This document shows positions 3,076 through 17,342 of a stretch of DNA of 37,213 nucleotides, piece after piece. Position 1 is the first letter of the stretch. Every line of letters starts with the position of its first letter. Made by a program: the position numbers and the translations under genes. Location: assembly GCA_018065885.1 (NCBI GenBank), contig JAGHSL010000041.1, forward strand, positions 1-37,213, in the 5' to 3' direction. Under the pieces are notes generated by a model. The model did not search any database. It was not told the origin of the DNA and saw only the letters and a list, made by a program, of their open reading frames with translations. Origin of the DNA: Candidatus Limimorpha equi. GTDB taxonomy: Bacteria > Bacteroidota > Bacteroidia > Bacteroidales > F082.

Positions 3076-3363
3076 TCACAACGTTATCAAACAATACACC
3101 ATGGCCCAAACCACCAAAACGGTCTGCACCAGCAATGCCAACGGAACTCCAACGGCAAACGATGTGTGAAGCGTTTTGTGACGATATTCGTGCATGGCAC
3201 AGAAAGCACCCAATGCTCCTCCAAGAAACGAGACGGCAAGCAAAGCCGCCTCCGAAATACGGTATTCACCACGTTCTGCATGCTGCTTATCAATGCGGTA
3301 CATGTGAAACGCGACCACATTCATCACTATAATATAGAAAAAAAATACCAACATAACTGACAT
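3076..3363 (-). CDS. DUF1294 family small membrane protein
   Basis: 95-aa ORF with ATG at 3363. FHMYRIDKQHAERGEYRISEAALLAVSFLGGALGAFCAMHEYRHKT matches the conserved DK..A......RI.E..L......GG..G......RHKT core of DUF1294. Confidence 0.7.
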   Translation of the reverse strand: MSVMLVFFFYIIVMNVVAFHMYRIDKQHAERGEYRISEAALLAVSFLGGALGAFCAMHEYRHKTLHTSFAVGVPLALLVQTVLVVWAMVYCLITL

Positions 3364-3381
3364 TTACATCTATTCATAAAA

Positions 3382-5091
3382 CTAATTCTCATTTGCAACT
3401 GAAAGCGCAAGTCGGAAGCCGAGCCATTCGTGCCTTCCTTTTGGCGAAACGTACATCCGATATGTATTGCGGGAAGAACCCGCACTCTGAAGGTAATAGC
3501 CTCCTCTGCGCACTTTCATCGGTTTGTCGATGCTATTGGAATCTGGCCCACAAGGATTATACATTTCTTCTCCAGAATACCTCTCATACCAATCGGAGCA
3601 CCATTCAATCACATTTCCCGTCATGTCGTACAGCCCCAATTCGTTAGGCTGCTTCCGCTTCACAGGGTGCGTCTGACAATGGTGGTTTTTCTCCAGACTG
3701 TTCAAGCTGTCATTGCAATAATCCCAGCCAATGTAATCATCTCCACTGTTTCTCCAATACCAAGCCACATCGTCAATATTGTCACTACCTGCATATTTGT
3801 ATTGTTTGCTGTGGATGCCTCCTCGGGCGGCAAACTCCCATTCAGCTTCCGTCGGAAGCCTGAATTTTTTTCCAGTCTTGTCATTCAGTTTCTGGACAAA
3901 CGTGAGGCAATCATCATAGCTAACCTGTTCAACAGGATTTTGTTTTCCCTTGAATTGGCTTGGGTTATCGTTCATAACCGCTTCCCACAGTTCCTGAGTG
4001 ACCTCTGTCTCTCCGATATAATAGCCATCAAGCGTTACCCGATGCCGAGGTTTTTCCCAATCTTTTGCATCCGAATCATCAGCGGCAGCTCCCATCATGA
4101 AACTTCCCCCCTCTACCTTATTCATGGTAAAAGAAACACCGTTGACTTTGAAAACCTCTGAAGTGAATTGGTCTCCTTCCTGCTCATGCCCACAATGGTT
4201 GATAATGACAGGCAGGATGACCGCCACGGCAACTAATGCCAGCAATCCGAAAGCAATCCGTTTTGACAGCCTTTTCGCTGGTGATGGAATTGGTGGGCCA
4301 TATACGCATTCCCTATCAATTTGTAGATCAGGCATTATCCTCACCTTGGATTGTGGATTTACATCTACGGGCGGATTCACATTGTCGGTTCGCATCGGTT
4401 CCGGCTGTGGTTCAGCATCAGCTGGTCTGTCAGCGATGGTGTCGGCAACGGGATTCTGATTCATTTCCATCTCGGCATTTGGATCAGCCTCGACTACTTC
4501 AACCGACGGATGCTCTCTGTCGGCTGTCAGCAGACCCTTTCCGCAAAACACGGTTCCGTATCGGGCAAAGCTGACGTTCCACATATTGCGAAGCATTTGC
4601 GAAAGGCCGCCTTGGTAAAAGGCAACTTCACCATCAGCCGGAGCCGTGTAGCCCGAAACGACATCGCCATCGGACACAAGGCTCCCCTCTACATCCTGCG
4701 ACAATGGACTGAGGAAACTCCAGTCGCACTCATACTGAATCACGTTCTGACGGATGAATTTCGAGTGGTTCAGAATCATTTCCCTCGAAATCCGTCCGAG
4801 CACGGCCTCGCCATTCAGCTGCCTGCCTCGCGGTATCAGAAACGAAAACATGAGGTAGGCAGGCGCGTAGTTGGCGTCGAAAGCCCGCTCCACGCGGTGA
4901 AGCCACATCCCCGACGGCGCCGCGCTCATGGCCCAGCCTGTGGTGGGCGTGCCGTCGCCGTACTGATTCGAGAGGTAATGCCGGATGTCGTGAAGGACCT
5001 TCACGTCGCTATCGGCCAGTGAACCGCCGTCAACGACAACTTCCTGACGGTAGGCCGTGCCCAATATGCCATGTACAACTATTGAAATCAT
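3382..5091 (-). CDS. Single-pass membrane protein: conserved cytoplasmic 'head' domain + TM + extracytoplasmic FGE-sulfatase (SUMF1/EgtB/PvdO-type) domain
   Basis: The track start at 5103 is TTG; the first ATG is 5091 (MISIVVHG...). The head and linker (nt ~5091-4288) are ~87% identical in protein to the N-terminus of the 9434..11203 product. TM is IAFGLLALVAVAVILPVII (nt ~4257-4201). The C-terminal blocks GGSFMMG, RVTLDGYYIGETEVTQELWEAVM, FRLPTEAEWEFAARGG, GLYDMTGNVIEWCSDW and LGFRLA are FGE-sulfatase signatures. Confidence 0.85.
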   Translation of the reverse strand: MISIVVHGILGTAYRQEVVVDGGSLADSDVKVLHDIRHYLSNQYGDGTPTTGWAMSAAPSGMWLHRVERAFDANYAPAYLMFSFLIPRGRQLNGEAVLGRISREMILNHSKFIRQNVIQYECDWSFLSPLSQDVEGSLVSDGDVVSGYTAPADGEVAFYQGGLSQMLRNMWNVSFARYGTVFCGKGLLTADREHPSVEVVEADPNAEMEMNQNPVADTIADRPADAEPQPEPMRTDNVNPPVDVNPQSKVRIMPDLQIDRECVYGPPIPSPAKRLSKRIAFGLLALVAVAVILPVIINHCGHEQEGDQFTSEVFKVNGVSFTMNKVEGGSFMMGAAADDSDAKDWEKPRHRVTLDGYYIGETEVTQELWEAVMNDNPSQFKGKQNPVEQVSYDDCLTFVQKLNDKTGKKFRLPTEAEWEFAARGGIHSKQYKYAGSDNIDDVAWYWRNSGDDYIGWDYCNDSLNSLEKNHHCQTHPVKRKQPNELGLYDMTGNVIEWCSDWYERYSGEEMYNPCGPDSNSIDKPMKVRRGGYYLQSAGSSRNTYRMYVSPKGRHEWLGFRLALSVANEN

Positions 5092-5175
5092 AAGAATACA
5101 CAAAAAAACTTATAATGGTTGAAAACAAATCGCAAAAACAAATGGACATGAGATTCTTCGTATGTCCGGCTGTAA

Positions 5176-6120
5176 TCAATCTACATCACACAAATGCAGA
5201 TTCTCCTCTAAGGCACTCAAGCGGTCTTCTTCTTTCTCCACTTTATTGGCGCTGTCGTATGCTCTATTGTACTCCTCCTCTCCAACACAAAGTGCCAACC
5301 TGATAATATGCTCAGCCCTTTCCGACAAACCCCAATTCATAATCATGTATTTATCACCGAACAATCTGTAACCACCCTTCACATTCTCCCATGTCAGACA
5401 TGAAAATAATTTCGATGAAGTTGAGATTTTACTGTCGATATATATTTCGAACAAATACTCCTTCAAAAATTCGAAACGTTCTTGTTCATCCTTGATTTTG
5501 CTTGCTTTCTCGTATGCTCTCTCATAATCTTCTTCTCCAATCCTGTATCCCAAAGCATAATTAATAATATCTATAGCCCATGACTCAAGTTCCAGATTCA
5601 TTTTATGTTTCTCAAAAAAAAGTATGGGACCTTCTTGTACATTTTCCCATGTCAGATATGAATATAATTCTGACAAAGTGGACACATGCGTTTGGGGCAA
5701 GCGCACATACTCCTGCAAAGCATCCAAACGGGCTTCATTTCCCTTGACTCCGTATGCTTTTAAGTATGCTTTCTTGTAATATTCTTCTTCAATACTGTAT
5801 TCCAAAACATAATCAATAATAAAGGAAGCACTTTGCTTCAAGTTTTGGTCTATTACTTCGTATTTCTCATAAAACAGTCTGCCTTCATCTTTTACATTCT
5901 CCCACGTCAGGCAAAAATATAATGTTCCTGAAGAATTGATTTTTATTTTCTCTGACGGCTTCATTTCTGTTTCACATCGTTCGGGTTTTGGATTTCCACC
6001 ACTGTCGTTATCACATTTACAGAAAACCATCAAAACCAAAGCGGCGACAGCAGCTATCCTGATTATCGGAAAGACACATTTCAGCATTTTTATAGTACGA
6101 TGTAAAACGATTGAGATCAT
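5176..6120 (-). CDS. Secreted/probable lipoprotein made of three ~85-aa 'LTWENV' helical modules
   Basis: 314-aa ORF with ATG at 6120 (alternative ATG at 6087, MLKCVFPIIRIAAVAALVLMVFCKC signal). Three repeats carry (L)(Y/F)xxLTWENV(K/Q)xG..LF..K(Y/H)..., then EE(E/D)Y..AY and (R)(L/F).(A/F)L.E(Y/N)(V/L), at aa ~66-139, 150-222 and 237-309. Confidence 0.7.
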   Translation of the reverse strand: MISIVLHRTIKMLKCVFPIIRIAAVAALVLMVFCKCDNDSGGNPKPERCETEMKPSEKIKINSSGTLYFCLTWENVKDEGRLFYEKYEVIDQNLKQSASFIIDYVLEYSIEEEYYKKAYLKAYGVKGNEARLDALQEYVRLPQTHVSTLSELYSYLTWENVQEGPILFFEKHKMNLELESWAIDIINYALGYRIGEEDYERAYEKASKIKDEQERFEFLKEYLFEIYIDSKISTSSKLFSCLTWENVKGGYRLFGDKYMIMNWGLSERAEHIIRLALCVGEEEYNRAYDSANKVEKEEDRLSALEENLHLCDVD

Positions 6121-6179
6121 AAGGACTAAACAAAAACTTTAAATTGACTAAAAAAAGCAAGACGAACAGGCATAAAGAC

Positions 6180-6257
6180 TTGAGACAGCGAAGCCCCGCG
6201 AGAGGCGATTGCCAAGAATGCCGGAAGCATCACATTCTCGCGACCTCGCTGTCTCAA
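6180..6257 (-). terminator. Long GC-rich imperfect hairpin downstream of the DUF805 gene (terminator-like or REP-like)
   Basis: ttgagacagcga (6180-6191) pairs with tcgctgtctcaa (6246-6257). An inner stem pairs cgcgaga (6197-6203) with tctcgcg (6236-6242). On the minus strand a T-run (cttgcttttttt) follows only ~20 nt later, so it is not a textbook intrinsic terminator. Confidence 0.3.
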
Positions 6258-6273
6258 AGCCTGCGTTTGCAAA

Positions 6274-6588
6274 TCATTCATCAGGTTCGTCGCCATATTG
6301 GTTTGCTCCCGATTCGGATTTCATGCATGCAAACACAATATTTGCTATGGGAATAAAGAGACACCATCCCGACCTGCCCGTATCGTGCATTCTGCGGACA
6401 GCCACAGCAAGTGATGGCAATAATAAAGCCAGCGAAACTATCAGATTTAGCGTCTCGTTAATTGCTCCACAAACCAAGCCAACGAGAAAATTGAAAAGAT
6501 AAAACCACCAATACTCAGATCTTGATGCTCTTCCATTGAAACTTACATACTTGCTTAGACAAGTAGCGACTGATTGTCCAAATGTCAT
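6274..6588 (-). CDS. DUF805 family inner-membrane protein
   Basis: 104-aa ORF with ATG at 6588. F.GRASRSEYWWFYLFNFLV, then RRMHDTGRSGW, then GANQYG are the hallmark blocks of DUF805 (YhaH/YhaI-like). Confidence 0.8.
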   Translation of the reverse strand: MTFGQSVATCLSKYVSFNGRASRSEYWWFYLFNFLVGLVCGAINETLNLIVSLALLLPSLAVAVRRMHDTGRSGWCLFIPIANIVFACMKSESGANQYGDEPDE

Positions 6589-6714
6589 AATGATATTTTT
6601 TTAAGTGTTTAAGGGTTCCATAACTTCATTTTCCCAATCCAAAAGGTGGCATAGAACCCATGAATCCACCTATAGGACAAATTATATGTAAACTAAATAT
6701 GCTCATTTACTTAT

Positions 6715-7479
6715 CTATAGCTCCTCTGGCTCTATGCACACCGAGAAGGCCTTACCGCTTGACGTGCCGACATACTTGTATTTCAGTCCATAGTGCGTTT
6801 TCTTCAACAGGTCACTCAAATCCTTTATCATAATGTCGTCAGAACCAGAGAGTTCTACCAACATCAGTTCCTTCAATTCATCCATATTTTCCTCCATAAA
6901 ATTCAAGTCGTAAACCGACTCGTCACATTCATAGATATAAGTGAAGTAATGGTCGTCAAGAAACACATCGGTCATAACCATGCCTTCGTCCACTGGCATC
7001 GGAGTTTGAAGCCTTGTGCTTTCAACCACTGATTCCAGCAATGCCAGCGGATTGTCATCCGAACAGTCAAGGTTGTCTTTCAGTTCTTTTGCCGTAAAGG
7101 TAAAGGAGATAGCCTTGTCAGGATTCCCGACATTATACACGACATTCAAATCGGCATCTGCTCCAATTATGGCCTCAAGGAACTTCCTGAATCCCTCGTT
7201 CGGATTGTTGACGAAACTCATAAGCATGTTGCTACGAAAGCTTTCCTTGTTTGCCACAACACCGTCGTAGTCAAGGATTTCTTCGTCAAACGTGTATGCA
7301 ATTGTCACGGTATGACCGTCATACTCCACCTTGTCGATGTCCGCAAATTCGCTGTCTAATCCGAAATCTGACAATTCGTTCATTGCCTGAACATATTCCC
7401 TAAGTTCCTTGTCACTGTTGCCACACGAGGCAAACGCTACCATAATGGTGGTAAGCATAATGTAAATCTTTTTTCTCAT
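6715..7479 (-). CDS. Lipoprotein, module architecture A-B (paralog of 7839..9404)
   Basis: 254 aa. MRKKIYIMLTTIMVAFASCGNSD has a canonical lipobox. The N-terminal module A is (EYDGHTVTIAYTF...FRSNMLMSFVNNPNEGFRKFLEAI). The C-terminal module B ends HYGLKYKYVGTSSGKAFSVCIEPEEL. Confidence 0.75.
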   Translation of the reverse strand: MRKKIYIMLTTIMVAFASCGNSDKELREYVQAMNELSDFGLDSEFADIDKVEYDGHTVTIAYTFDEEILDYDGVVANKESFRSNMLMSFVNNPNEGFRKFLEAIIGADADLNVVYNVGNPDKAISFTFTAKELKDNLDCSDDNPLALLESVVESTRLQTPMPVDEGMVMTDVFLDDHYFTYIYECDESVYDLNFMEENMDELKELMLVELSGSDDIMIKDLSDLLKKTHYGLKYKYVGTSSGKAFSVCIEPEEL

Positions 7480-7530
7480 GATAAATTTGTTTGTTATTGT
7501 TACTGTTTAATATTGGTTCTAGTTTAGTAA

Positions 7531-7787
7531 ATGACTGATTTTTCTATTATCACAATTAGATTCCCGCGTTGCGGGAAATCGAAGATTACCTCACTTCGTG
7601 TCGGTGAATTTACATTTCGACGTAGTCAATGGCCGCCCTATGTGTTATCAGTGCATACGGCGGCGGCTGAGGTCTACATTTAGGTTGAAAACAGGTTGCC
7701 ACCGTTGTTCTAACAATCTCAACTGTATGCCATTCCCGTCGGCAGACGGGAATCTGCGCAAATTCCATTCGCTATAAAATCAGTCAT
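7531..7787. other. Hairpin-rich ~257-nt intergenic element bounded by a 12-bp inverted repeat (candidate structured RNA, MITE-like or invertible element)
   Basis: atgactgatttt (7531-7542) is the reverse complement of aaaatcagtcat (7776-7787). Two related hairpins lie inside: ttcccgc-gtt-gcgggaa (7561-7577) and ttcccgtc-ggca-gacgggaa (7733-7752). Further hairpins are cgaag-attacctca-cttcg and ccgccctatg...catacggcgg. It sits in an unusually long 359-nt spacer between two paralogous lipoprotein genes. Confidence 0.3.
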
Positions 7788-7838
7788 CCGTTATACTACA
7801 GCCTTAATATTTTGCCAATTCCATGTTTTTTTCAACAT

Positions 7839-9404
7839 CTATAGTTCCTCCGGTTCCATGCCCACCGAGAAGACCTTACCGCTTGATGCGCCAACATACT
7901 TGTACCTTACTCCATAATGCGCTTGCTTCAACATATCGCAAAACTCCTTATTTTCCTCATTATTAACAATTTCACTCCTCAACAACGATTTCATCAAGTC
8001 CTTATTCCTATTCATTACGTCCAGGTCAAGTTTCAACTCATCACATTCATAAACGTATGTGAAATATGATTTATCCAAGAACACATCGGTCAGAACCATC
8101 CCATTGCCTAAATCAGTCGGGGTTTGGCTTTTAAAATAGTTGGCAGTGTAATCCAACAGAGCCTTGGGGTCATGCAAATCTTCGTCAGATTCTTCAACCA
8201 CTTCTTCAACCACTTCAGGCTCTGTTTCAACATTCCATACAGCAATCTCATACGGCTCAATGCACACTGCGAGCATCTTCCCACTTGACTTGCCAACATA
8301 CTTGTATTTTACACCATAATGCACTTTCTTCAGTATGTTGCACAGTTCCCTGTTATCTTCATCATCAAAAAACTGGCTCTTGAGCATCAATCTTACCAAT
8401 TCTTTATTCTCTTCAATCATATTCATCAGGTCAGATTCCGACTCGTCTAATTCAAAAACGTATGTGAAGTAAGATCCATCAAGAGTCACCTCGGTCATAA
8501 CCATTCCATCCGACACTTCCGTTGGGGTTTCAAGGTCTGCCAAAACCGCAATAGCTTTCAATAGTTCCATTGAACCCTCATCGTCTTCATCAATGTCATC
8601 ATCCTCTTCTGCATATAACTCCGAAGCATCATACACCAAGCCTTCAACAACCTCATTCGGTTCAATATATATCGTACAGTCGTCTCCGCTTAACGAACCG
8701 ACAAACTTGAAAATCACTCCATAATGTAATTTCACCAACAAATCATAAATGGCTTGATTCATAAAATCATCAGAATTGGAGATAAATTCCAACATTGACA
8801 CCTTTAGCACGTTCTTGTTCAAATTCAAATCATCAATGTCAATTATCAACTCGTCACACTCAAACTCGTATGCCATGTAACGTGCATCATAGTAAATATC
8901 AGTCATCGTCATTCCGTCACCACAATCCATCGGGGTTTGGAATTTTCCATTATCAACAAAAACTTTTAACCTTAACAGAGGATCGGCATCAGCATTCGAA
9001 AGGCATTCTTTCAGTTCTTTGGTTGTATAGCGCATGGTGAAAGACTCGTTATAATCGCCATTAATTACGATTTTCAATTCAGCATCTGATTCTACTATGG
9101 CTTCAAGCAGTTTTTTGAATTCGTCAGTCTCGTTATTGGCATAACTCAGAAGCATATTGTTGCGGAAACTTTCCTCGTTTGACCTGGCGCCATTAAAATT
9201 GAAGCCTCCTTTTGCAACCAAATAGGTCAAAGTCACCACATGACCGTCATATTCAGCCTTATCGAACCTAAAGGCATCGCCTGTATTGGCTTTATTTAAA
9301 TTGTTCAGCCTCCCAACAATCTCCCTAAGATCCTTGTCATTGTTGCCGTATGTGGCTATTGCCGTCAAAATGGCGGCAAGCATAATGTAAATCTTTTTTC
9401 TCAT
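7839..9404 (-). CDS. Secreted repeat protein, module architecture A-B-B-B (paralog of 6715..7479; lipobox Cys replaced by Tyr)
   Basis: 521 aa. The N-terminus MRKKIYIMLAAILTAIATYGNND is collinear with the paralog's signal peptide, but Tyr sits where the paralog has Cys. The three B modules end HYGVIFKFVGSLSGDDCTIYIEPNEV, HYGVKYKYVGKSSGKMLAVCIEPYEI and HYGVRYKYVGASSGKVFSVGMEPEEL. About 35 nt of 5' leader is also shared with the paralog. Confidence 0.75.
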   Translation of the reverse strand: MRKKIYIMLAAILTAIATYGNNDKDLREIVGRLNNLNKANTGDAFRFDKAEYDGHVVTLTYLVAKGGFNFNGARSNEESFRNNMLLSYANNETDEFKKLLEAIVESDAELKIVINGDYNESFTMRYTTKELKECLSNADADPLLRLKVFVDNGKFQTPMDCGDGMTMTDIYYDARYMAYEFECDELIIDIDDLNLNKNVLKVSMLEFISNSDDFMNQAIYDLLVKLHYGVIFKFVGSLSGDDCTIYIEPNEVVEGLVYDASELYAEEDDDIDEDDEGSMELLKAIAVLADLETPTEVSDGMVMTEVTLDGSYFTYVFELDESESDLMNMIEENKELVRLMLKSQFFDDEDNRELCNILKKVHYGVKYKYVGKSSGKMLAVCIEPYEIAVWNVETEPEVVEEVVEESDEDLHDPKALLDYTANYFKSQTPTDLGNGMVLTDVFLDKSYFTYVYECDELKLDLDVMNRNKDLMKSLLRSEIVNNEENKEFCDMLKQAHYGVRYKYVGASSGKVFSVGMEPEEL

Positions 9405-9433
9405 GATAAATTTGTGTTTGTTATTGTTTCTGT

Positions 9434-11203
9434 TTAACCTAATCCAAATTTTGGAGCAGTTTTTTTTGCTTCTTCGCCCACTAACGAATCAAATGTCCTC
9501 AAGTCAATAATTACTTGCAAATAATGCTTCAAACCATCTAAACGATCATTATTATCGTCATTGCCGATTTCGTTTTTGTATGCACTCTCATATTCATCTT
9601 TTTTAACACAACGTGCTTTTTTAATAATATCGTCAGCTTGTCGACTCAGTTTTGGATCATCTACTTCGTATTTCTCATAAAACAGCTTGCCACCGTCTTT
9701 CACATTCTCCCATGTCAGGCAAAGGAACAGCTTTGATTCCTGACTGACATTTATCTTTTTTTTCTTATTTTCCACAATCGGCTCGGCCACCTCTTCTGCA
9801 ACTGTTTCCTCAACGCTATCCATCATTATGCTCTCGTCATATTCAACTACATCTTCTTCAATTTCCTCAATTACATACTCATTATCATCACGGCTTGCCT
9901 CCATAACACTATCGGAGCCGCGTTTATACGAAATCAACATAACCACGGCCAACGATGTCCAGATCACTAAAGCAGTTATCGACCGTTTACCGGCAATCGG
10001 ATTTTCAGAAGCCACAGGTTCTTTCGGATTGGCTCCATATTCGTTGTCACCACGTTCACCATTTTTGAAAAGCATCACATACGGATAAAATGGTATCAAT
10101 TGGAACCATCCGGAACGTCCAATGTCGTGACACCGTTTCGCGCCTTGGACCAACAGGACCCAAGATGACAGAATCCAGAGAAGAACCCATGACAAGGAAA
10201 AAAATGATATGCAAGACTCAGGACATCCTTCTTCATCAATCAGATACGCAAGCTCACCTGCTGCCATCAACAACAGAAAAACATGTATCATGAAAAAGAC
10301 TACTGTAAGCCCATATTCCAATCTCCGTATCCTGCCTTTGGGTGAAAGCACATCATGAAACATTCTGGCTTTTTTCCCTTTAACTGGTGGAATTGGTGGA
10401 ATTGGCGGGCCATATACGCATGGATGATCAATTCGTGGATCAGGCATTATCCAATCCTTGGATTGTGGATTTACATCTACGGGCGGATTCACATTGTCGG
10501 TTCGCATCGGTTCCGGCTGCGGTTCTGCATCAGCCGGTTTGTCAGCAACACTGTCGGCAATGGGATTCCGACTCTTTTCCATCTCGGCATTCGGTTCAGC
10601 CTCGGCTACTTCGACCGAAGGAAGCTCCCTGTCGGCAGTCAGAAGCCCCTTTCCGCAAAACACGGTTCCGTATCGGGCAAAGCTGACGCTCCACATATTG
10701 CAAAGCATCTGCGAAAGGCCGCCTTGGTAAAAGGCGACTTCGCCATCAGCCGGAGCCGTGTAGCCCGAAACGGCTCCGCCTTCAGGCACAAGGCTCCCCT
10801 CCACATCCTGCGACAACGGACTGAGGAAACTCCAGTCGCACTCATTCTGAATCACGTTCTGACGGATGAATTTCGAGTGGTTCAGAATCATTTCCCTCGA
10901 AATCCGTCCAAGCACGGCCTCGTCATCTAACCGCTTGCCTCGCGGTATCAGGAAAGAAAACATGAGGTAGGCAGGTGCGTAGTTGGTGTCGAAAGCCCGC
11001 TCCACGCGGTGAAGCCACATCCCCGACGGCGCCGCACTCATGGCCCAGCCTGTGGCGGGCGTGCCGTCGCCATACTGATTCGAAAGGTAACGACGGATGT
11101 CGTGGAGGACCTTCACGTCGCCATCGGCCAGTGAACCTCCGTCAACGGCAACGTCCCGACGGTAGCCCGTGCCCAATATGCCATGTACAACAATTGAAAT
11201 CAT
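9434..11203 (-). CDS. Membrane protein: conserved cytoplasmic 'head' domain + DUF805 membrane domain + extra TM + acidic linker + one 'LTWENV' module
   Basis: The track start at 11209 is TTG; ATG at 11203 gives MISIVVHG.... The head and linker span nt ~11203-10400. The DUF805 blocks RIRRLEYG...AKRCHDIGRSGW...GDNEYGANP span nt ~10363-10019. TM is ITALVIWTSLAVVMLI. The C-terminal LFLCLTWENVKDGGKLFYEKYEV...DEYESAY...RLDGLKHYL spans nt ~9733-9515. Confidence 0.85.
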   Translation of the reverse strand: MISIVVHGILGTGYRRDVAVDGGSLADGDVKVLHDIRRYLSNQYGDGTPATGWAMSAAPSGMWLHRVERAFDTNYAPAYLMFSFLIPRGKRLDDEAVLGRISREMILNHSKFIRQNVIQNECDWSFLSPLSQDVEGSLVPEGGAVSGYTAPADGEVAFYQGGLSQMLCNMWSVSFARYGTVFCGKGLLTADRELPSVEVAEAEPNAEMEKSRNPIADSVADKPADAEPQPEPMRTDNVNPPVDVNPQSKDWIMPDPRIDHPCVYGPPIPPIPPVKGKKARMFHDVLSPKGRIRRLEYGLTVVFFMIHVFLLLMAAGELAYLIDEEGCPESCISFFSLSWVLLWILSSWVLLVQGAKRCHDIGRSGWFQLIPFYPYVMLFKNGERGDNEYGANPKEPVASENPIAGKRSITALVIWTSLAVVMLISYKRGSDSVMEASRDDNEYVIEEIEEDVVEYDESIMMDSVEETVAEEVAEPIVENKKKKINVSQESKLFLCLTWENVKDGGKLFYEKYEVDDPKLSRQADDIIKKARCVKKDEYESAYKNEIGNDDNNDRLDGLKHYLQVIIDLRTFDSLVGEEAKKTAPKFGLG

Positions 11204-11302
11204 AGTCAAAACACACTAATTCTTGTTAATTTCACTTATTTTGATAGCCAAAACATCATAAACCTATCACCTGACACCCAAAATAATTCACCATTCTTCC
11301 TT

Positions 11303-12097
11303 TCACTTCCGCCCAATAGGTAGTTTGGCCCATGCCTGTTTTGCAAGATAGGGAAAATCAGCGTCCAAATCAACGCCATATTCGTTCATCAGGTATCTCT
11401 TGAATTCCATCAGTTCTTTCAACGTACTGATTTCACTGCCTTTACCTTTGTCGAGTTCGTCCTTAATGTAGCCATGCACGGCCAGCAAACCGTCGATGTT
11501 CCATTTCGTGTCGCATCCGGTAATAAGCTTCAACCCGTTCTGATACCTTTTGTTTTTTTCGGCATCATACTCCTCCTTCAACGAAGACGCGCTTTCTGCC
11601 AACAGCAGCAAGTCGTCAATCTTCTTAGGATAGTTTGTGCCCAACAGCTTCTGGTGCAGCTTGAGTGTCGGAACGCTGGCACAAGGATGCCGGTCATCTC
11701 CGCGATACAGCTCGTCAAGCGAATGGCTATCGTAATATTTGCGAAGCTCGTCAATCCATGCCATTTCTTCCTTTATCGAATCGATGGCGGTGTTTGCATT
11801 TTCCATACTTTCCTTCGCCTTATCACATTGTTGCTTCACATCTTTCATCCTGGCATCAATTGCCTTGCCCTGAAACCATTTGTCGTTCATTCCGTTGTAA
11901 ATTTGACATAGCGAATCCACTTCGTTTATCAAATCGGCAACACGCTGATTGAGATCATTGATCTGAGTGGAATCGACGCTGCCTTTAGCCTTCCCAACGG
12001 CAGGCTTGGGATTCTTCCTAACGGTCTGGGCATTGGCCGTGAATGAAAGCAAAACTGCAAATAACAATACTATCTGTTTCATGGTTGTCGTTTTCAT
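11303..12097 (-). CDS. Secreted alpha-helical/coiled-coil protein of unknown function
   Basis: 264 aa with signal peptide MKQIVLLFAVLLSFTANAQ. It is helix-rich and charged. The C-terminal DADFPYLAKQAW resembles APDAYPYLYGVL of the upstream gene product. Its ATG overlaps the upstream stop (ATGA at 12094-12097). Confidence 0.6.
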   Translation of the reverse strand: MKTTTMKQIVLLFAVLLSFTANAQTVRKNPKPAVGKAKGSVDSTQINDLNQRVADLINEVDSLCQIYNGMNDKWFQGKAIDARMKDVKQQCDKAKESMENANTAIDSIKEEMAWIDELRKYYDSHSLDELYRGDDRHPCASVPTLKLHQKLLGTNYPKKIDDLLLLAESASSLKEEYDAEKNKRYQNGLKLITGCDTKWNIDGLLAVHGYIKDELDKGKGSEISTLKELMEFKRYLMNEYGVDLDADFPYLAKQAWAKLPIGRK

Positions 12098-12969
12098 AAC
12101 TTATCAATTAAATTCTTAATATCTTTGGTCGGGTCATCTATCTTGATTTTCATGGTTTCCATCAGCACGCCATACAAGTAAGGGTAAGCATCGGGAGCGA
12201 ACAATTCCTGATCGAGTTCCGTTTCTATTATTTCATAAAAATCTTCAAGATAATTTTTTATGATAATATCCGCATCTCCTTCTTCTACTTTCTTCATTTT
12301 GCAAACGAAATCCAATACAGTTTTCAGCTGTCCGGTCATGCGTCCGTAATCCTTGAGGCGTGTAGCTATTTCCGAGCACTTTGATTTTTCCGAGAGATGA
12401 ATATCATTGGCCTTTGCCATTGCATCCAGTTCGGCAGCAGCCGAGACGACACGTTCGCTTACGGAAGCGTAGGGTTTGCTCAACAGGGCTTCGGCCCTAT
12501 GGCAAGCCAGCAGATCGCTGACGGTTTTTTCCGATTCCTTATCGCCGAGATGTCCCTTGACCTGCAGCAGCATGACGGTGTCGTAATCAGCATACAGATT
12601 TTTGAACCAATCCTTATCGCCCTTATTGCTGCACAAGTCTTTTTTCAGCACGCCTTGGGCATACTTGAGCCGGGATTCAACGTCTTTACGGACGCTTGCC
12701 AGACTATCGGCTTCTTTGCGCAGCTTCTCAAGTTCAGCATTTCCCTTTTCAAATTCATCGATGGCTTTTTGCCAGCGGTTCATATCCGCCAACTGCTTCC
12801 CTGCCTTTTCAAGGTCTTTTTCCGACCATCCGCATGTGGCATCCGGCGCTGTTTTCACATCCGGTGCTTTTTTCCCTTTGGATTGTCCGTGTGCCCATGC
12901 CGGGACGGTCACGCACAGCATCATGATTGCCAACTTTGTGGCAAAACGGCATTTCATCATTCTTTTCAT
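12094..12969 (-). CDS. Secreted alpha-helical protein of unknown function (distant paralog of 11303..12097)
   Basis: 291 aa with signal peptide FATKLAIMMLCVTVPAWAHGQ and coiled-coil-like sequence. It overlaps the next gene by 4 bp, implying translational coupling. Confidence 0.6.
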   Translation of the reverse strand: MKRMMKCRFATKLAIMMLCVTVPAWAHGQSKGKKAPDVKTAPDATCGWSEKDLEKAGKQLADMNRWQKAIDEFEKGNAELEKLRKEADSLASVRKDVESRLKYAQGVLKKDLCSNKGDKDWFKNLYADYDTVMLLQVKGHLGDKESEKTVSDLLACHRAEALLSKPYASVSERVVSAAAELDAMAKANDIHLSEKSKCSEIATRLKDYGRMTGQLKTVLDFVCKMKKVEEGDADIIIKNYLEDFYEIIETELDQELFAPDAYPYLYGVLMETMKIKIDDPTKDIKNLIDKL

Positions 12970-13231
12970 AAGTATAACTGCTTTATGTGATAATTAAAAA
13001 ATAACCTATAACGATAATAGTTGTTTTTTTCGCTTTGCAAAACGCAAATTATCGTAAATGAATCATAAATTATTAAAAGTTATAATTAAATGTATATCAG
13101 TTAATTCGCATTAATTTACGGCTGATTTGTGGCAATTTGCGTTCAACAGGAAATCAATGGCTAATGTTTAGATGTGTTACACACTTATTTTTTAGCGTTA
13201 CTATATCATTAAACGATTCCTGCAAAATTTC

Positions 13232-13307
13232 GGGGCGGCAAGGCTTTTGCCGATTGGCGTCGGCCCCCTGAGCCTGCCGAAATGACGAAGCATCCTCAAT
13301 TTCGGCA
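13232..13307 (-). terminator. GC-rich double hairpin ending the 13-gene cluster (putative intrinsic terminator or structured element)
   Basis: Hairpin 2 has the 9-bp stem tgccgaaat (13275-13283) / atttcggca (13299-13307). Hairpin 1 pairs ggggc (13232-13236) with gcccc (13263-13267) and encloses ggcaa/ttgcc. On the minus strand GAAATTTTG follows. It lies 48 nt downstream of the stop at 13355, in an otherwise AT-rich 385-nt spacer. Confidence 0.35.
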
Positions 13308-13354
13308 AGCTCAATGAGCGGACTTCTCAAGCTACCGTGCCTCCACATTAAATG

Positions 13355-14281
13355 TTACCGAGATGGCTTTGGGAACGCATCCAGCATTTCATTCCAACGC
13401 TTGACATTGCCGTTCACATCGCCCGAACTCACTCCATAGAGCGACTTAGCCATGTTCTGGTATAAGGCCATCTCACTGTCCTTATCGGCTATCTTGTTGA
13501 TTACAGAACGATACTGGCTATCGGTAGGAATGTCAGGAAGGGCAACCTTTCCTTTTTCCATCAAGGCATCCACGAAAGCCACATGGCCGCTGTGGAGCTT
13601 TTTCTGAACGGCTGCTTTCCGCGTGCTTTCGTAGAGCGTAGTGTTGCTGACTGGAGCGCTTGCCGTGGGCACATTGGCCAAGAGATTCTCCACCGTCTTG
13701 TAGTTCCATCTGTCGTCGATGGATGACGGAAGCTGCTTGCTTTGCCTATTCACATTCGAATTGTAATTTACAATTACACGGTATTCCTTGCAGATCCCGT
13801 CGATTTCCATCAGGTCGCTGTTGCTCTTTTCCCCTTTGAGGAAGTCCGCTGTCATGGCCTCGATGCTTTTAAAGTTATCCCAGTTCCAGCTTTTCTTTGC
13901 AAATTCGCTTCTTGCCATGGCGATGAAACGCACCAGGCAGCGGTTGCGGATGACCACGTTCACGCTCGTCATACATTCTGGTTCGACGTTCTGATTAGCG
14001 AAAAACTTACGCAGCTCTTCGGGAAGCGCCTGCAGCTTCTTGAAATCGCCGTCGCCGACGGCATTGACCTGCGCCTCAATGAGCTTTCCGGCCGAAGCCA
14101 CCGTCCCTTCGCATACTTCAGGAATTATGATTTCTTCTTGTTGCTGTTGTTCTGGTTCGTTTGTGGCAATCTTGTAGATTCCGAAACCCAAGGCGGCTGC
14201 TATGGCCACCACGATAATGATTTTAATTGTTTTCATTGGTTTGTGTTGTATTATGATTTTTATTTTATTGCAATTTTCCAT
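13355..14281 (-). CDS. Single-pass (N-terminal TM) protein of unknown function, last gene of the cluster
   Basis: 308 aa. ATG at 14281 overlaps the upstream gene by 17 nt. The alternative ATG at 14236 gives MKTIKIIIVVAIAAALGFGIYKIA (signal-anchor). I recognised no known motif. Confidence 0.6.
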   Translation of the reverse strand: MENCNKIKIIIQHKPMKTIKIIIVVAIAAALGFGIYKIATNEPEQQQQEEIIIPEVCEGTVASAGKLIEAQVNAVGDGDFKKLQALPEELRKFFANQNVEPECMTSVNVVIRNRCLVRFIAMARSEFAKKSWNWDNFKSIEAMTADFLKGEKSNSDLMEIDGICKEYRVIVNYNSNVNRQSKQLPSSIDDRWNYKTVENLLANVPTASAPVSNTTLYESTRKAAVQKKLHSGHVAFVDALMEKGKVALPDIPTDSQYRSVINKIADKDSEMALYQNMAKSLYGVSSGDVNGNVKRWNEMLDAFPKPSR

Positions 14282-17200
14282 CTAAAGCATTTACTAAGCA
14301 AGTCAAAATATCCCAATCATTTTTTTTATTAGCTTCTGAGGAAACATAACCATTGGCTCTTTGAAATGATTGTTCATATTGATCTTTGCCCATTTTTCTT
14401 GCTCTATCTTTGATATTTGAAATTTGCTTACTATACCTGTCGACGCTATTATTCAAAGAAAATTCCTCAAAATACTGATCTATAGTTAACTCTGCAGCAT
14501 TGTGATAATTAAGGCTGTTGAATATTTCATTTATTGTGTTTAGTGTTTTCTTCCCACCGCCATCACCATCTGATTTTTCAACAGATTCCTGGGCACCCAG
14601 GGAAGTACTTTCACCTTGAGTATCTTGGAGCCTTTTTTTCAGATCTTCCACCCAACCAGTCACTTTCTTAACCATCTTAGAATCAGGATATTCACTCTGA
14701 TAATTATTGAGGAAACCTTTACATTCTTCTAATGTCTTTGTATTTTCATAAAATTTTTTAAAAGCTTTCACCGCTCCAACATCTTCTGAATACCTTCCGC
14801 CATACTTGCCATCACCATACTTTTCAATAAAACCACGGGCAGAATCTGGCCCATCTACCATATTAAGCTCTTCCCATTCTTCCCTTTCCTCTTCGGCATT
14901 TGCTAATGATTTTTTTTCTTTTTCCCTTTCATTAATCCATTTGTTCACCTGCTTTCTATGTGCTTCAGACATCGGGGCTGTCAAATCACCAATTTTATCC
15001 TTAATCTCATCATAAGACTTCATATCTACATCATTCCATTTCTTTTCCAAGAAGCTAAGTCGGGCAAAATTCACGCTATCGCGATGCCTGAAGTCACATT
15101 GTTTTTGGTACAAGCTTTCAAAAGCGAGATACAATGAATCCTGTTGGGCTTCTTTTTGCTTTTCATTTTTTTCCAATCCTTCAATTATCTTCAGACATTC
15201 TGAATGACATTGTTCTGCACCTGCCATAAGTGTGAAATCGCCACAATAACATTCAAAGCCTTTCACCTGATCATTGAAATGTTCCATTCTTTCCTTTTGT
15301 TCTGCAAACACGTTGTTGTCGTCCTTCAGAGCCAAGGCCAAAGCCAATGCACCGCCAACCACAAGCAGAAGCGACACGACCAACAGGAACATGTATTTTG
15401 TCCGGAGCTTCCTGACAACCTTGTATGGCTGAGGTTTTTCGGTTTCTTGCCGCCAAACAACCTCTTCCTCATCTCCAAGTTCCAGCCTATACGAATAACG
15501 GTCTTTCTCAACTTTCGCAAACTTTGGTTCAACCGTAGGCATGTCTTGACACTCAATCACAAGCCTATGATTTTTTTTGTCATAGGAGATACCTTTATCT
15601 TTGATGATTTCATCAGGACCATTTCCAAAGACAGAAAATTTCTTCGATTTCTTATCCAGCAGCAGCACCCACTTCTTTATTGGCTTTTCTACCGGTTCTT
15701 CTTTTTTCCTAACATCTTTATCTTTGTAGGTGTTCTCTTTTCTCTTTGGCCGTCCCGGGTCTGAGGCCGTTAGCTGAACGGAAACGCCGGAGTTTGCCGA
15801 GTTGGACCCGTCGTGCGGGGAATTTCCTCCGGCTTTGACCGGAGGAAGCGAAACGGCTTCTTTCTTCTTAAAATACAGTTTCACATTCCCATTTGAATCA
15901 TCGCATTTGTCAAATTCCAGACCTTGATCAGCGTAACACCTTTTCAGTTCATCGATTTTTGCATCCAATTCGTTTTTCCGGACGGACATTTCAGAAATTT
16001 TCTGAAAATCAAGTATAATCTTTACCGTGATTAGCGGATACTTGGCCTTTATTGTCACGGTTCTGTTTGCGGCATCCTCCTGTGGCGGAGCCACTTCAAG
16101 TCCTGCGACATTCAAACTGCGTTTCAGCTTTTCGATTTCCGTGTATTTTCCGTTTTGCTTCACTGGGAATGTTCCTCCGTTTACGGGCGAAATCACGTTG
16201 ATGGTCCAAGTCGGGTTGAACGTAAGCTGAACATCAACTTTACCAACAGTGCCGTCGGCAATGGCGACAGACAGTTCATTATCATCGTAGCCGTTGCAGC
16301 TCACCTTGACGGTCCAGACCTCGTCACATTCCTCTCTCTCAAACTTGTAAAGTCCGTTTTCAGCAGTTCTTTTTTCCCAAGACGAGTCGTAGAACTTGCC
16401 TTTTTTCCATTCAACGGTAGTCTCTCCACTTAGAAACAGATTTCCAGTTGCTTTGTCAATGATTCGAAGCGAAACCGATGCGCTTTTGGGGACGAGAATG
16501 GGCAGCTCCACATTGATGGTTTCGCCATCCGAGCTTTGTGTGCCGGAAGGGATATAGACCTCGGCAGGCCTATAGCCACTTCTTTCGAGTCTGCCGCACC
16601 GGAAGTCTCCTGCACTTGTTTCCAGTTCTTTCTTTTTGACAGATGATTTCAAGCCATTAGTGAAGTATCCGTTCGGGTTGTTATATTCAATGGCATAATC
16701 GATGTCGTCGATATCCACATCGTTTGTCGTCAGCACTTTGTAGCCTTCTTCGCCATTGTCCGACACCATTTGCGGGTCGAGCAGGCTTTCGGTAAGAAAC
16801 ACCTGTTCGAAGTTGGCAAAGCCAGATTTTAGGAAATGGGGATATTGGAAATAATCGTCCACGCGGTTTTCGGCCCCTTGCATCAAGGCCGTGCGCGATG
16901 CGTCGCCAACTCGAGGGTGCTGTTTCCAATGCTTGCTTTCCACCAGTTTGTTCAGTTCGTCGGATTTGTCTTTCACAAACGACCAATCGACATCCACATT
17001 AGCCATTCCCCCCACGATGTGCATCTTGTATTTCAAGACAATATCGTCCAAAGCCTTCTTGATTTCGGTGCCAGCCAGTTTTTCTCCCTTAGGCAGGAAA
17101 AGGCTGGCCATCATGAAACCGTCGCGGCCAAAACCATCGAAAAGAAGAATCAGCTTATGGAACAGGACACCTGTAGCCAAAGGCTGAAAGCTATAGCCTT

Positions 17201-17342
17201 CCTTGTTGAGCCTATCAGCGTCGCGGGTGAGAAAACGGCGGCGGTCCAATAAAGATTTCGAAATCTCGTCATCAAGGATACCATCCGTGGCATATCTGGG
17301 ATAGAAGCCGTCGGACGTACCGCTAATTATTATCTTAATCAT
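14265..17342 (-). CDS. 1025-aa single-pass membrane protein: 'head' domain (distant homolog of the 3382 and 9434 heads) + beta-rich middle + TM + helical extracytoplasmic C-terminus
   Basis: ATG at 17342. The head MIKIIISGTSDG...GFMMASLFLPKGEKLAGTEIKKALDDIVL...VDVDWSFV aligns with MISIVVHGILGT...AYLMFSFLIPRGRQLNGEAVLGRISREMIL...YECDWSFL. A CarboxypepD_reg-like stretch follows (VSLRIIDKATGNLF...WTVKVSCNGYDDNELSVAIADG). The only TM is YMFLLVVSLLLVVGGALALALAL (nt ~15395-15327). Confidence 0.8.
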   Translation of the reverse strand: MIKIIISGTSDGFYPRYATDGILDDEISKSLLDRRRFLTRDADRLNKEGYSFQPLATGVLFHKLILLFDGFGRDGFMMASLFLPKGEKLAGTEIKKALDDIVLKYKMHIVGGMANVDVDWSFVKDKSDELNKLVESKHWKQHPRVGDASRTALMQGAENRVDDYFQYPHFLKSGFANFEQVFLTESLLDPQMVSDNGEEGYKVLTTNDVDIDDIDYAIEYNNPNGYFTNGLKSSVKKKELETSAGDFRCGRLERSGYRPAEVYIPSGTQSSDGETINVELPILVPKSASVSLRIIDKATGNLFLSGETTVEWKKGKFYDSSWEKRTAENGLYKFEREECDEVWTVKVSCNGYDDNELSVAIADGTVGKVDVQLTFNPTWTINVISPVNGGTFPVKQNGKYTEIEKLKRSLNVAGLEVAPPQEDAANRTVTIKAKYPLITVKIILDFQKISEMSVRKNELDAKIDELKRCYADQGLEFDKCDDSNGNVKLYFKKKEAVSLPPVKAGGNSPHDGSNSANSGVSVQLTASDPGRPKRKENTYKDKDVRKKEEPVEKPIKKWVLLLDKKSKKFSVFGNGPDEIIKDKGISYDKKNHRLVIECQDMPTVEPKFAKVEKDRYSYRLELGDEEEVVWRQETEKPQPYKVVRKLRTKYMFLLVVSLLLVVGGALALALALKDDNNVFAEQKERMEHFNDQVKGFECYCGDFTLMAGAEQCHSECLKIIEGLEKNEKQKEAQQDSLYLAFESLYQKQCDFRHRDSVNFARLSFLEKKWNDVDMKSYDEIKDKIGDLTAPMSEAHRKQVNKWINEREKEKKSLANAEEEREEWEELNMVDGPDSARGFIEKYGDGKYGGRYSEDVGAVKAFKKFYENTKTLEECKGFLNNYQSEYPDSKMVKKVTGWVEDLKKRLQDTQGESTSLGAQESVEKSDGDGGGKKTLNTINEIFNSLNYHNAAELTIDQYFEEFSLNNSVDRYSKQISNIKDRARKMGKDQYEQSFQRANGYVSSEANKKNDWDILTCLVNALDGKLQ

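Follow-up and report, generated by a model that had tools for sequence, protein, structure and literature searches.

The contig JAGHSL010000041.1 of Candidatus Limimorpha equi (GenBank assembly GCA_018065885.1; Bacteroidales, F082), analysed over positions 1 to 37,213 of its forward strand and called the window here, carries two genes whose products share an N-terminal domain (the head) and have entirely different C-terminal parts (the tails). These genes, A and B, raise two questions: how did the heads come to be alike when the tails are not, and what does the head do? We lean, with some reserve, towards one reading that answers both. The head would be a docking platform for a GTPase, SrfB and SrfC encoded in the same cluster, and the heads would be kept alike by gene conversion. 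The shared block and the two genes are listed below; P and L numbers are our handles for family proteins and comparison loci.

4285..5092, no strand assigned: shared block, copy 1 (local alignment; repeat family D1).
10397..11204, no strand assigned: shared block, copy 2, a direct repeat 6112 nucleotides (nt) from copy 1.
3382..5091, minus strand: short-head gene A, 569 amino acids (aa), with head, linker, transmembrane (TM) helix and FGE-sulfatase fold (open reading frame, ORF; PF03781, E 3e-47; orthologue P0005/L9_576).
4507..5091, minus strand: globular head of A, residues 1-195 (90% identity with head B; ratio of non-synonymous to synonymous substitution rates, dN/dS, 0.23; AlphaFold2, AF2, predicted local distance difference test, pLDDT, 92.3).
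4279..4506, minus strand: low-complexity Pro/Glu/Asp linker of A, ending CVYGPPIP (within the shared block; dN/dS 0.54).
4201..4257, minus strand: predicted TM helix of A, residues 279-297, after KRLSKR (hydropathy scan and motif coordinates; topology predicted).
3406..4122, minus strand: FGE-sulfatase (C-type-lectin-like) fold of A, non-catalytic (Pfam; PDB alignment).
9434..11203, minus strand: short-head gene B, 589 aa, with head, linker, DUF805, TM helix, acidic linker and LTWENV module (ORF; Pfam; module hidden Markov models, HMMs).
10619..11203, minus strand: globular head of B, residues 1-195 (BLASTP and alignment to head A).
10031..10348, minus strand: DUF805 membrane module of B, residues 286-391 (PF05656; TM segments 10256..10315 and 10148..10204).
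9926..9979, minus strand: extra TM helix of B, residues 409-426 (TM segment coordinates).
9524..9757, minus strand: LTWENV module of B, residues 483-560 (local HMM from four window copies).

The two copies of the block, 4285..5092 and 10397..11204, aligned over 808 nt without a gap, with 736 of the 808 positions identical (91.1%, local alignment). Mismatches were spread over the whole block at a fairly even density, with no exact run longer than 64 nt. At the protein level 230 of 265 head residues were identical (87%, BLASTP, no gaps), in agreement with a first-pass annotation of this DNA, which had counted about 35 differences and roughly 87% identity. The same annotation had stated that the proteins diverge completely past the proline-rich linker; outside the 265-residue head, BLASTP matches between A and B were at chance level only. 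A gradual loss of identity was not seen in the nucleotide alignment, and both edges of the block are abrupt. At the 5' edge, identity in a 30-nt window rose from 8/30 to 28/30 at the ATG within a few bases, and at the 3' edge it fell from 20-23/30 to 4-9/30 past the CCAATTCCA (P-I-P) codons. The flanks of the two copies were unrelated. The ORF lister had chosen upstream TTG codons for A and B; their true starts are the ATGs at 5091 and 11203, because the homologues all begin with MISIV/MIxI and the DNA identity begins there. An assembly artefact was ruled out, as the copies differ at 9% of sites, an independent Logan assembly holds the part of the locus with the long-head gene described below, and other genomes repeat the organisation.

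The architecture of both tails was confirmed as first described. In gene A, the TM helix at residues 279-297 is followed by PF03781 at residues 324-562 (161.9 bits against a gathering cut-off of 23.3). The closest PDB relative of this tail was TvpA, a variable protein of a Treponema denticola diversity-generating retroelement (DGR) (E 7e-31), ahead of the true FGE enzymes. The LCH..YCNRY segment of the S. coelicolor FGE (2q17/6muj) aligned to LQS..SRNTY in tail A, so that its two cysteines, which we take to be the catalytic pair, are replaced by Q and S. Since both cysteines aligned to the FGE active site are missing, the alignment marks tail A as a binding module and not an enzyme. The tail of B was read as DUF805, TM helix, acidic linker and LTWENV module, and Pfam (PF05656, E 1.6e-15, 58 bits against a gathering cut-off of 25.7), the TM segments and the module HMM agreed. 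Its C-terminus, after the acidic stretch, is one copy of a module that is present three times in the nearby ORF 5176..6120. In P0002, an ENA metagenome protein of 224 aa, head residues 1-160 run straight into the C-terminal 50 aa of an FGE-sulfatase tail. This protein appears to be an internal-deletion variant of an A-type gene, which would show that such genes recombine or delete in nature.

The head itself is an unannotated domain of about 195 aa. Word-indexed protein searches returned just two to three relatives, and a locus search with a narrow head alignment returned one genome locus and two metagenome loci. The family emerged solely in a full HMMER scan with a five-sequence profile against 1.84 billion representative proteins, which gave 110 clusters, 53 of them at E<1e-30. 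The head match began at residue 1 in all 110 clusters, and nearly all family members had at least one hydrophobic TM segment downstream. Short forms (380-720 aa) carried it near residue 250-330 and long forms (860-1330 aa) near residue 560-870; the long forms include a window protein of 1025 aa (P0007, 100% identical). A third, more distant group comprised proteins of 700-900 aa. P0064, a protein of 2270 aa that matched profile positions 101-163 partially 15 times, was set aside as a repeat artefact.

Single-linkage clustering of the tails was uninformative, as shared LTWENV and DUF805 modules merged nearly all of them, and HMMs for each module were used instead. Among the 52 closest representatives, the Pfam tails were DUF805 (11), Sel1 (5), FGE-sulfatase (2) and TPR (2). 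With the local HMMs, the LTWENV module was found C-terminally in 36 family proteins, long and short alike, and YPNG-type repeats and pieces of long-head tails were found on some short heads. The head thus occurs elsewhere with DUF805, DUF805 plus LTWENV, LTWENV alone, FGE-sulfatase, Sel1, TPR/YPNG repeats or polytopic tails. The survey asked whether the head is ever joined to alternative tails, and the many that it found across the 110 clusters favour the conserved-head, variable-tail family that had been proposed from the window. The heads are under purifying selection in every comparison. Their dN/dS had been named as a quantity to compute; between A and B it was 0.23 in the globular head and 0.54 in the linker, and over all comparisons it was 0.1-0.23 in the globular head.

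Sequence searches with the head gave only scattered noise against Pfam at E up to 10 (each family matched by 1 of 27 members, E >= 0.09), no match against NCBIfam at E 0.01 and no match against PDB sequences at E up to 10. A first AF2 model from five sequences was poor (pLDDT 62) and was replaced by a model from a 27-sequence alignment (pLDDT 92.3, predicted TM-score 0.90). In this model, strands span residues 4-10, 13-20, 51-58, 61-71 and 77-87, and helices span residues 27-30 (as assigned by DSSP), 96-107 and 127-135; a full first helix (residues 27-42) was seen only in the first, low-confidence model. The resulting order, b-b-a-b-b-b-a-a, is followed by a small extra C-terminal subdomain (residues ~138-190). 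It agrees in the model with the longin order b1-b2-a1-b3-b4-b5-a2-a3, a meander of five strands that has one helix on one face and two helices on the opposite face (PMC3747258). In Foldseek searches against the PDB, P. aeruginosa TagF came first for both head models, followed by the longin domains of Lst4, FLCN and GATOR1. The scores with TagF were E 2e-3, probability up to 0.97, TM-score 0.40-0.43 and a root-mean-square deviation of about 9-9.5 Å. A fold search of BFVD with the head gave nothing meaningful. A longin/TagF-like fold of the head is, on these models, a supported lead rather than a demonstrated membership.

TagF (PDB 6iz8, 2qnu, 9t0n), the best structural match for both models of the head, is known as a cytoplasmic protein without enzymatic activity that serves a membrane machine as an interaction hub (PMC5995506; bioRxiv 10.64898/2025.12.08.692957). 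In contrast to the head proteins, TagF is soluble and tied to the type VI secretion system, of which no genes were found here, and the two share no sequence similarity. Longin and roadblock domains serve small GTPases as platforms; the head adjoins a GTPase and is once fused to one. The head differs from longin domains and TagF in its extra C-terminal subdomain, and the TM-scores reach only 0.40-0.43.

The GTPase belongs to a gene cluster that includes a third, longer head gene together with SrfB and SrfC.

27574..30768, minus strand: SrfB (PF07520, E 3e-166).
24650..27541, minus strand: SrfC/Virul_Fac (Pfam, E 5e-89).
17504..19165, minus strand: TKxD-type P-loop GTPase with N-terminal YPNG repeats, directly upstream of the long-head gene (motifs in five homologues).
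14265..17342, minus strand: long-head gene, 1025 aa, with head residues 1-200 at 16743..17342 (BLASTP; alignment; architecture; conserved position).
11303..14281, minus strand: three conserved small genes, 13355..14281, 12094..12969 and 11303..12097 (homologues in the same order in L001, L008/L012 and L009).
3076..3363, minus strand: DUF1294 gene closing the array (Pfam; 68-77% identical homologues after the last head gene in L001, L008 and L009).

All genes from 30768 down to 3076 lie on the minus strand. They begin with SrfB, SrfC, two paralogous TM proteins, a papain-like peptidase, a TM protein, the GTPase and the long-head gene; the three small genes come next and separate the long-head gene from the short-head array, which consists of B, two repeat lipoproteins, DUF805, a lipoprotein with three LTWENV modules, A and DUF1294. 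On this strand the head genes thus follow srfC at a distance of 7-21 kb, and srfB has a trypsin-like peptidase gene directly before it and an anti-sigma factor gene before that.

After its head, which is 24% identical to head A (BLASTP, E 4e-9), the long-head protein continues with a conserved mid region, predicted to be cytoplasmic, which is followed by a TM helix near residue 646; its extracytoplasmic tail ends in a divergent LTWENV module (a divergent match to the local HMM). The position of its gene is kept in L009, L012, L014 and L005, and a TKxD GTPase gene preceded it in every locus examined. The P-loop protein is assigned as a GTPase with an NKxD-type specificity motif because FWGxPGSGKT, E[IL]SGE and [VI]TKxD are invariant in five homologues. 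Its N-terminal half consists of YPNG(x)H..A/E repeats with weak BamD/YfiO-like matches, and the protein is unannotated. In P0096, the head (hhalign probability 98%, E 1e-13) is fused directly to a TKxD GTPase domain that is 33% identical to residues 180-536 of the window GTPase, and no TM segment is present. This fusion argues for a head that is cytoplasmic and works with the TKxD GTPase.

The core order of TM protein, GTPase, long head and small genes was also found in L005, L008/L012, L009, L013 and L014. It continues through the three small genes to the short head(s) and DUF1294 in the window, L009, L008/L012 and L001, four genomes in which the number of short-head genes before DUF1294 is two, three, one and two, respectively. 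SrfB, SrfC and the protease were upstream wherever the sequence reached far enough (L012, L014). A Runella plasmid (L010) shows the same SrfB-SrfC-protease-TM-GTPase order, and the 784-aa protein after its GTPase matched the head weakly (E 7e-4). Judged by gene order, this is a conserved Bacteroidota cluster, to which the short-head genes and DUF1294 appear to have been added in one Bacteroidales subclade. PADLOC found no matches among ten cluster proteins, and Rfam none in the whole window.

The proteobacterial SrfABC system provides a parallel. SrfA is a bitopic inner-membrane protein whose cytoplasmic N-domain (130-165 aa) is connected by a disordered Pro/Ala/Glu-rich linker and one TM helix to a periplasmic domain. 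The protein has been modelled as a platform for SrfB and then SrfC, its N-domain is reported to have a kinase-like fold, and in two proteobacteria srfABC is flanked by a gene of the FGE family (bioRxiv 10.64898/2026.09.18.752743). The head proteins likewise combine an N-domain, a low-complexity linker (dN/dS 0.54), a TM segment and an outer domain, at least in their predicted topology, and they are encoded in one cluster with SrfB and SrfC, in which srfB has no canonical srfA upstream of it. Given these common features and the association of srfABC with an FGE-family gene, the heads might be extremely diverged homologues of the SrfA N-domain, and their genes a multiplied SrfA of a Bacteroidota SrfABC. 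We consider this unlikely. The SrfA model NF040486 scored 557 bits on Rahnella SrfA, used as a control, and matched none of the head proteins, and hhalign gave a probability of 0.2% for the head profile against that of the SrfA N-domain. Rahnella SrfA shows FLNGNW at the FLNGxW motif, which the head proteins lack. The reported fold is kinase-like, whereas the head matches TagF and longin domains. The srfA gene is single and directly upstream of srfB, whereas one long-head and two short-head genes are downstream of srfC here; SrfA has a lipocalin-like C-terminal domain, in contrast to the varied tails of the head proteins (FGE, DUF805, LTWENV), and the extra TKxD GTPase adjoins the head genes. 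With no detectable homology, we file the heads as domains that may work like SrfA, not as SrfA.

How the heads of A and B came to be alike can be judged from L009, the sister locus. The first-pass annotation had read the pair as tails swapped like cassettes onto a fixed head, and this part of it was not supported. Gene A has an orthologue in L009 (P0005/L9_576) at the matching position, directly before DUF1294, with an FGE tail that is 73% identical. Between gene A and L9_576, the synonymous divergence (dS) reached 1.45 in the head and 1.50 in the FGE tail, and it was 1.58 in the adjacent DUF1294 gene. Because dS is similar throughout, gene A is an ordinary orthologue, from its head and FGE tail to the DUF1294 gene downstream. 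Both loci hold a head+FGE gene and a head+DUF805+LTWENV gene at matching positions, with a lipoprotein between them (in L009 this is a homologue of the window repeat lipoproteins, placed between the head genes of 635 aa and 576 aa) and DUF1294 after them. Since both carry the matching pair, the paralogues predate the split of the two genomes and their heads were homogenised later. It is the heads, and not the tails, that were made alike in each genome. The heads of A and B were 90% identical and the three of L009 81-88%, against 65-71% between the two genomes; the corresponding dS values were 0.20, 0.57-0.97 and 1.45-1.95.

The heads of L009 also form a mosaic. In the 635-aa gene, nt 1-240 of the head were closest to the 576-aa gene, and nt 240-576 were closest to the 383-aa gene. 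The breakpoint at nt ~240 had a maximum chi-square of 27.3, which was reached by 0 of 5000 permutations (p<0.0002). The homogenised tract begins at the ATG in both the window and L009. Its other end is at the PIP linker in the window, where the breakpoint had been placed from the start, and at the end of the globular head in L009, so that the linker is not a general boundary. The best reading is that gene conversion, or unequal exchange between the 808-nt direct repeats, homogenised the heads, and that no tail cassettes were imported. In the linker of the L009 635-aa gene, just before VYGPPIV, a module of ~100 aa from the long-head mid region is inserted (L009 10601-10924; 36% identical to window long-head residues 403-502). 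This insertion indicates that modules also move between long and short forms.

As in other gene-conversion families, the paralogues within a genome are more alike than the orthologues, the tract edges are sharp and one locus is a mosaic. Classic cases of this kind use conversion to diversify exposed parts. In contrast, here a conserved cytoplasmic domain is homogenised under purifying selection and the exposed parts are left alone.

Plain duplication is an alternative: a head segment would have been copied once, independently, in each lineage and landed before a pre-existing tail gene, with no ongoing conversion, and the likeness of the heads would only date that event. The A/B differences are fairly even along the block, which has no long identical tract save the 64-nt run; headless genes in the array that carry the first 8-10 codons of the head could be landing sites; and the two L001 heads are just 51% alike. 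A single recent duplication is possible for the window pair taken alone. For the family as a whole we hold plain duplication to be quite improbable. It would have to recreate the same architectures twice, down to the matching genes, lipoprotein and DUF1294 of the window and L009. The three L009 heads are a mosaic with a significant breakpoint, and the tract ends differ between genomes, as repeated events predict.

The constant heads, the variable C-terminal parts with their sharp junctions, and the headless LTWENV x3 and DUF805 modules between A and B are also what a system of polymorphic toxins or effectors would present, with a constant trafficking domain, swappable C-terminal cassettes and orphan cassettes between the genes. 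The first-pass annotation had drawn this analogy, and it fails on the tails: these are binding and membrane modules rather than toxins (one lectin-like fold that is not catalytic, one small membrane module, and repeat modules), and they are orthologous between genomes instead of polymorphic. No immunity-type genes follow them, the downstream DUF1294 and lipoprotein genes being conserved between genomes; the proteins are predicted to be membrane-anchored and have no secretion-system marker domain; and no toxin families were found in Pfam, NCBIfam or PADLOC, nor did PADLOC tie the tails to a known defence system. We regard such a system as very improbable. Bacteroidales often use invertible cassettes, and tail A has its nearest solved relative in the DGR variable protein TvpA, but programmed rearrangement that switches the expressed tail (shufflon, phase variation or a DGR acting on the FGE fold) is hardly credible, as the blocks are direct repeats, no inverted repeats of at least 40 nt occur in the window, no second copy of the FGE 3' end (3382..3700; template or variable repeat, TR/VR) lies within the window, no recombinase or reverse transcriptase was among the ORFs scanned, and A and B are intact and under purifying selection.

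Tail A can be compared with TvpA (2y3c) and the other FGS-fold binding modules of conflict and DGR systems, for which the syntax "FGS always C-terminal" has been described (Kaur et al. 2020, PMC7159879). Tail A has the FGE fold, lacks the catalytic cysteines and is placed at the C-terminus. It differs from those systems in that no vWA, MoxR, STAND or DGR partner is in the window and its N-terminal partner is the new head.

The heads had also been described as visibly richer in GC than their surroundings, and the measured composition bore this out. Heads had a GC content of 0.55-0.57 and a third-position GC content (GC3) of 0.60-0.67, against 0.41-0.47 and 0.32-0.47 in the tails. The head-coding part exceeded the remainder of its gene in GC3 in the window, L001, L008 and L009, including in single-copy long-head genes; the AT-rich L005 locus was the exception (GC3 0.29 against 0.28). 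In the window long-head gene (14265-17342), GC3 dropped steadily from ~0.60 in the head to 0.23 at the 3' end. The GC step is thus a family-wide property that sets a conserved cytoplasmic part against fast-evolving, AT-drifting exposed parts. Foreign DNA or a by-product of conversion was ruled out as its source, since single-copy long heads and other genomes share the excess. Long antisense ORFs over the heads (4351..5022 and 10355..10930) are present as reported, but they are not confined to the heads, as a 243-aa antisense ORF (3430..4161) overlies the FGE tail.

The remaining genes of the array, and an element upstream of gene B, bear on the 5' edge of the block.

5176..6120, minus strand: headless lipoprotein with three LTWENV modules (ORF; its first ~24 nt, 6097-6120, encoding MISIVLHR, copy the head 5' end).
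6274..6588, minus strand: stand-alone DUF805 gene (Pfam E 1.8e-26, 93 bits against a cut-off of 25.7).
6715..9404, minus strand: two related repeat lipoproteins, 6715..7479 and 7839..9404 (repeat families D2, D5 and D8).
11243..11271, minus strand: 29-nt palindrome GGTGATAGGTTTATGATGTTTTGGCTATC, located 40-68 nt before gene B (the only occurrence in the window, against 0 expected).

Headless array genes carry the first 8-10 codons of the head. In ORF 5176..6120, MISIVLHR is followed by a lipoprotein signal peptide with its own Met. Likewise, COesterase lipoproteins of other loci begin with MISIVSNG (L009 6971-7000) and MIANVSHN (L012 19395-19420) before their signal peptides. The palindrome recurs upstream of these COesterase genes (L009 6907-6934, L012 19333-19360), and the region upstream of gene B is homologous to theirs, palindrome included. 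The palindrome is conserved across genomes in which synonymous sites are saturated and could be an operator or a terminator-like element. Because the headless genes share the first codons and the upstream region of B recurs with its palindrome, the extreme 5' end (palindrome, ATG and ~10 codons) behaves as a shared module and a recurrent recombination edge. The two repeat lipoproteins have near-identical 5' ends (MRKKIYIML) and hold one copy (6715-7479) and three to four copies (7839-9404) of a module of ~130 aa.

Further features were observed in and around the cluster. The two tandem paralogues at 21248-23020 and 23033-24643 (minus strand) have a conserved N-terminus (MP.PAVKGY.PLCVT...), a TM segment and different C-termini, with internal H.VRFL.PDG... 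repeats and no family match beyond a faint Listeria-Bacteroides repeat. Upstream of the trypsin, extracytoplasmic function (ECF) sigma and anti-sigma genes that head the cluster, two tandem ORFs of 76 aa (34399-34629 and 34801-35031, minus strand; 87% identical DNA, repeat D3) resemble small DNA-binding regulators. SIR2_2 and TIR_2 genes directly follow one long-head locus (L005 7688-9715), and a complete BREX system directly precedes SrfB/SrfC on the Runella plasmid (L010 1-12382). These neighbours hint at a defence-island (conflict-system) setting for such clusters.

Taken together, these results led us to propose that A and B are paralogues of an undescribed inner-membrane family, built from a cytoplasmic head of ~195 aa, a disordered linker, one or more TM segments and interchangeable modules. 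An N-in/C-out topology is predicted and agrees both with the KR-rich stretch that precedes the TM helix and with the occurrence of a head fused to a cytoplasmic GTPase. The head would be a non-enzymatic docking platform with a longin/TagF-like fold. It would bind the GTPase of the cluster and, through the GTPase or alongside it, SrfB/SrfC; we infer this docking and the adaptor role from the fold, the gene order and one fusion protein. Varied periplasmic modules (a non-catalytic FGE-fold binder, DUF805, LTWENV, Sel1/TPR) would in this way be coupled to one cytoplasmic machine, much as SrfA has been proposed to act in the SrfABC system of proteobacteria. The head segment would be homogenised from the start codon on, by gene conversion or by unequal recombination of the direct repeats with each other, the tails keeping their own histories. 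The heads may evolve in concert because each of them has to fit one partner common to all heads of the cell, and co-evolution with that partner is what we infer as the cause of homogenisation.

Several observations weigh against this proposal. The structural match to TagF is weak, PAS/LOV folds appear lower in the same Foldseek list, and the head profile is similar to no Pfam, NCBIfam or PDB sequence and, as noted, to no SrfA N-domain. The P0096 fusion comes from one metagenomic contig of 1.9 kb, the end of which cuts the N-terminus of the head. The short-head genes lie 13-26 kb from srfB/srfC. Two window heads at a dS of 0.2 fit conversion and duplication alike, the mosaic evidence being that of L009, and the 51% identity of the L001 heads indicates that homogenisation is not universal. 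The evolutionary and architectural statements are well supported. The proteins are probably a multi-copy, SrfA-like membrane adaptor family with an undescribed, longin/TagF-like head, within a conserved SrfB/SrfC/GTPase cluster. A stronger version, which we put forward only tentatively and hold to be doubtful, would make the head a prokaryotic longin-type GTPase platform in membrane receptors, and the SrfB/SrfC cluster a GTPase-switched trans-envelope machine with a logic like that of MglA/MglB. Several interchangeable periplasmic sensor modules would then feed one TKxD GTPase, forcing the concerted evolution of the heads.

SrfB and SrfC are widespread proteins without an accepted mechanism and have been labelled virulence factors and components of tripartite toxins. 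Bacteroidota encode them alongside a new GTPase and a new membrane-protein family, and the locus itself suggests partners that can be tested in pairs (head-GTPase, head-SrfB and head-SrfC). The window and its relatives also provide a clean case of gene conversion limited to one domain-coding segment, in which the cytoplasmic interface is homogenised and the exposed modules are untouched; such a pattern may be usable as a signature of shared-partner adaptor families in other genomes. A 2013 review stated that bacteria have no longin-like GTPase platforms (PMC3747258). If the longin-platform reading is true, SrfB/SrfC would gain a testable mechanism, and such platforms would be placed in bacteria.

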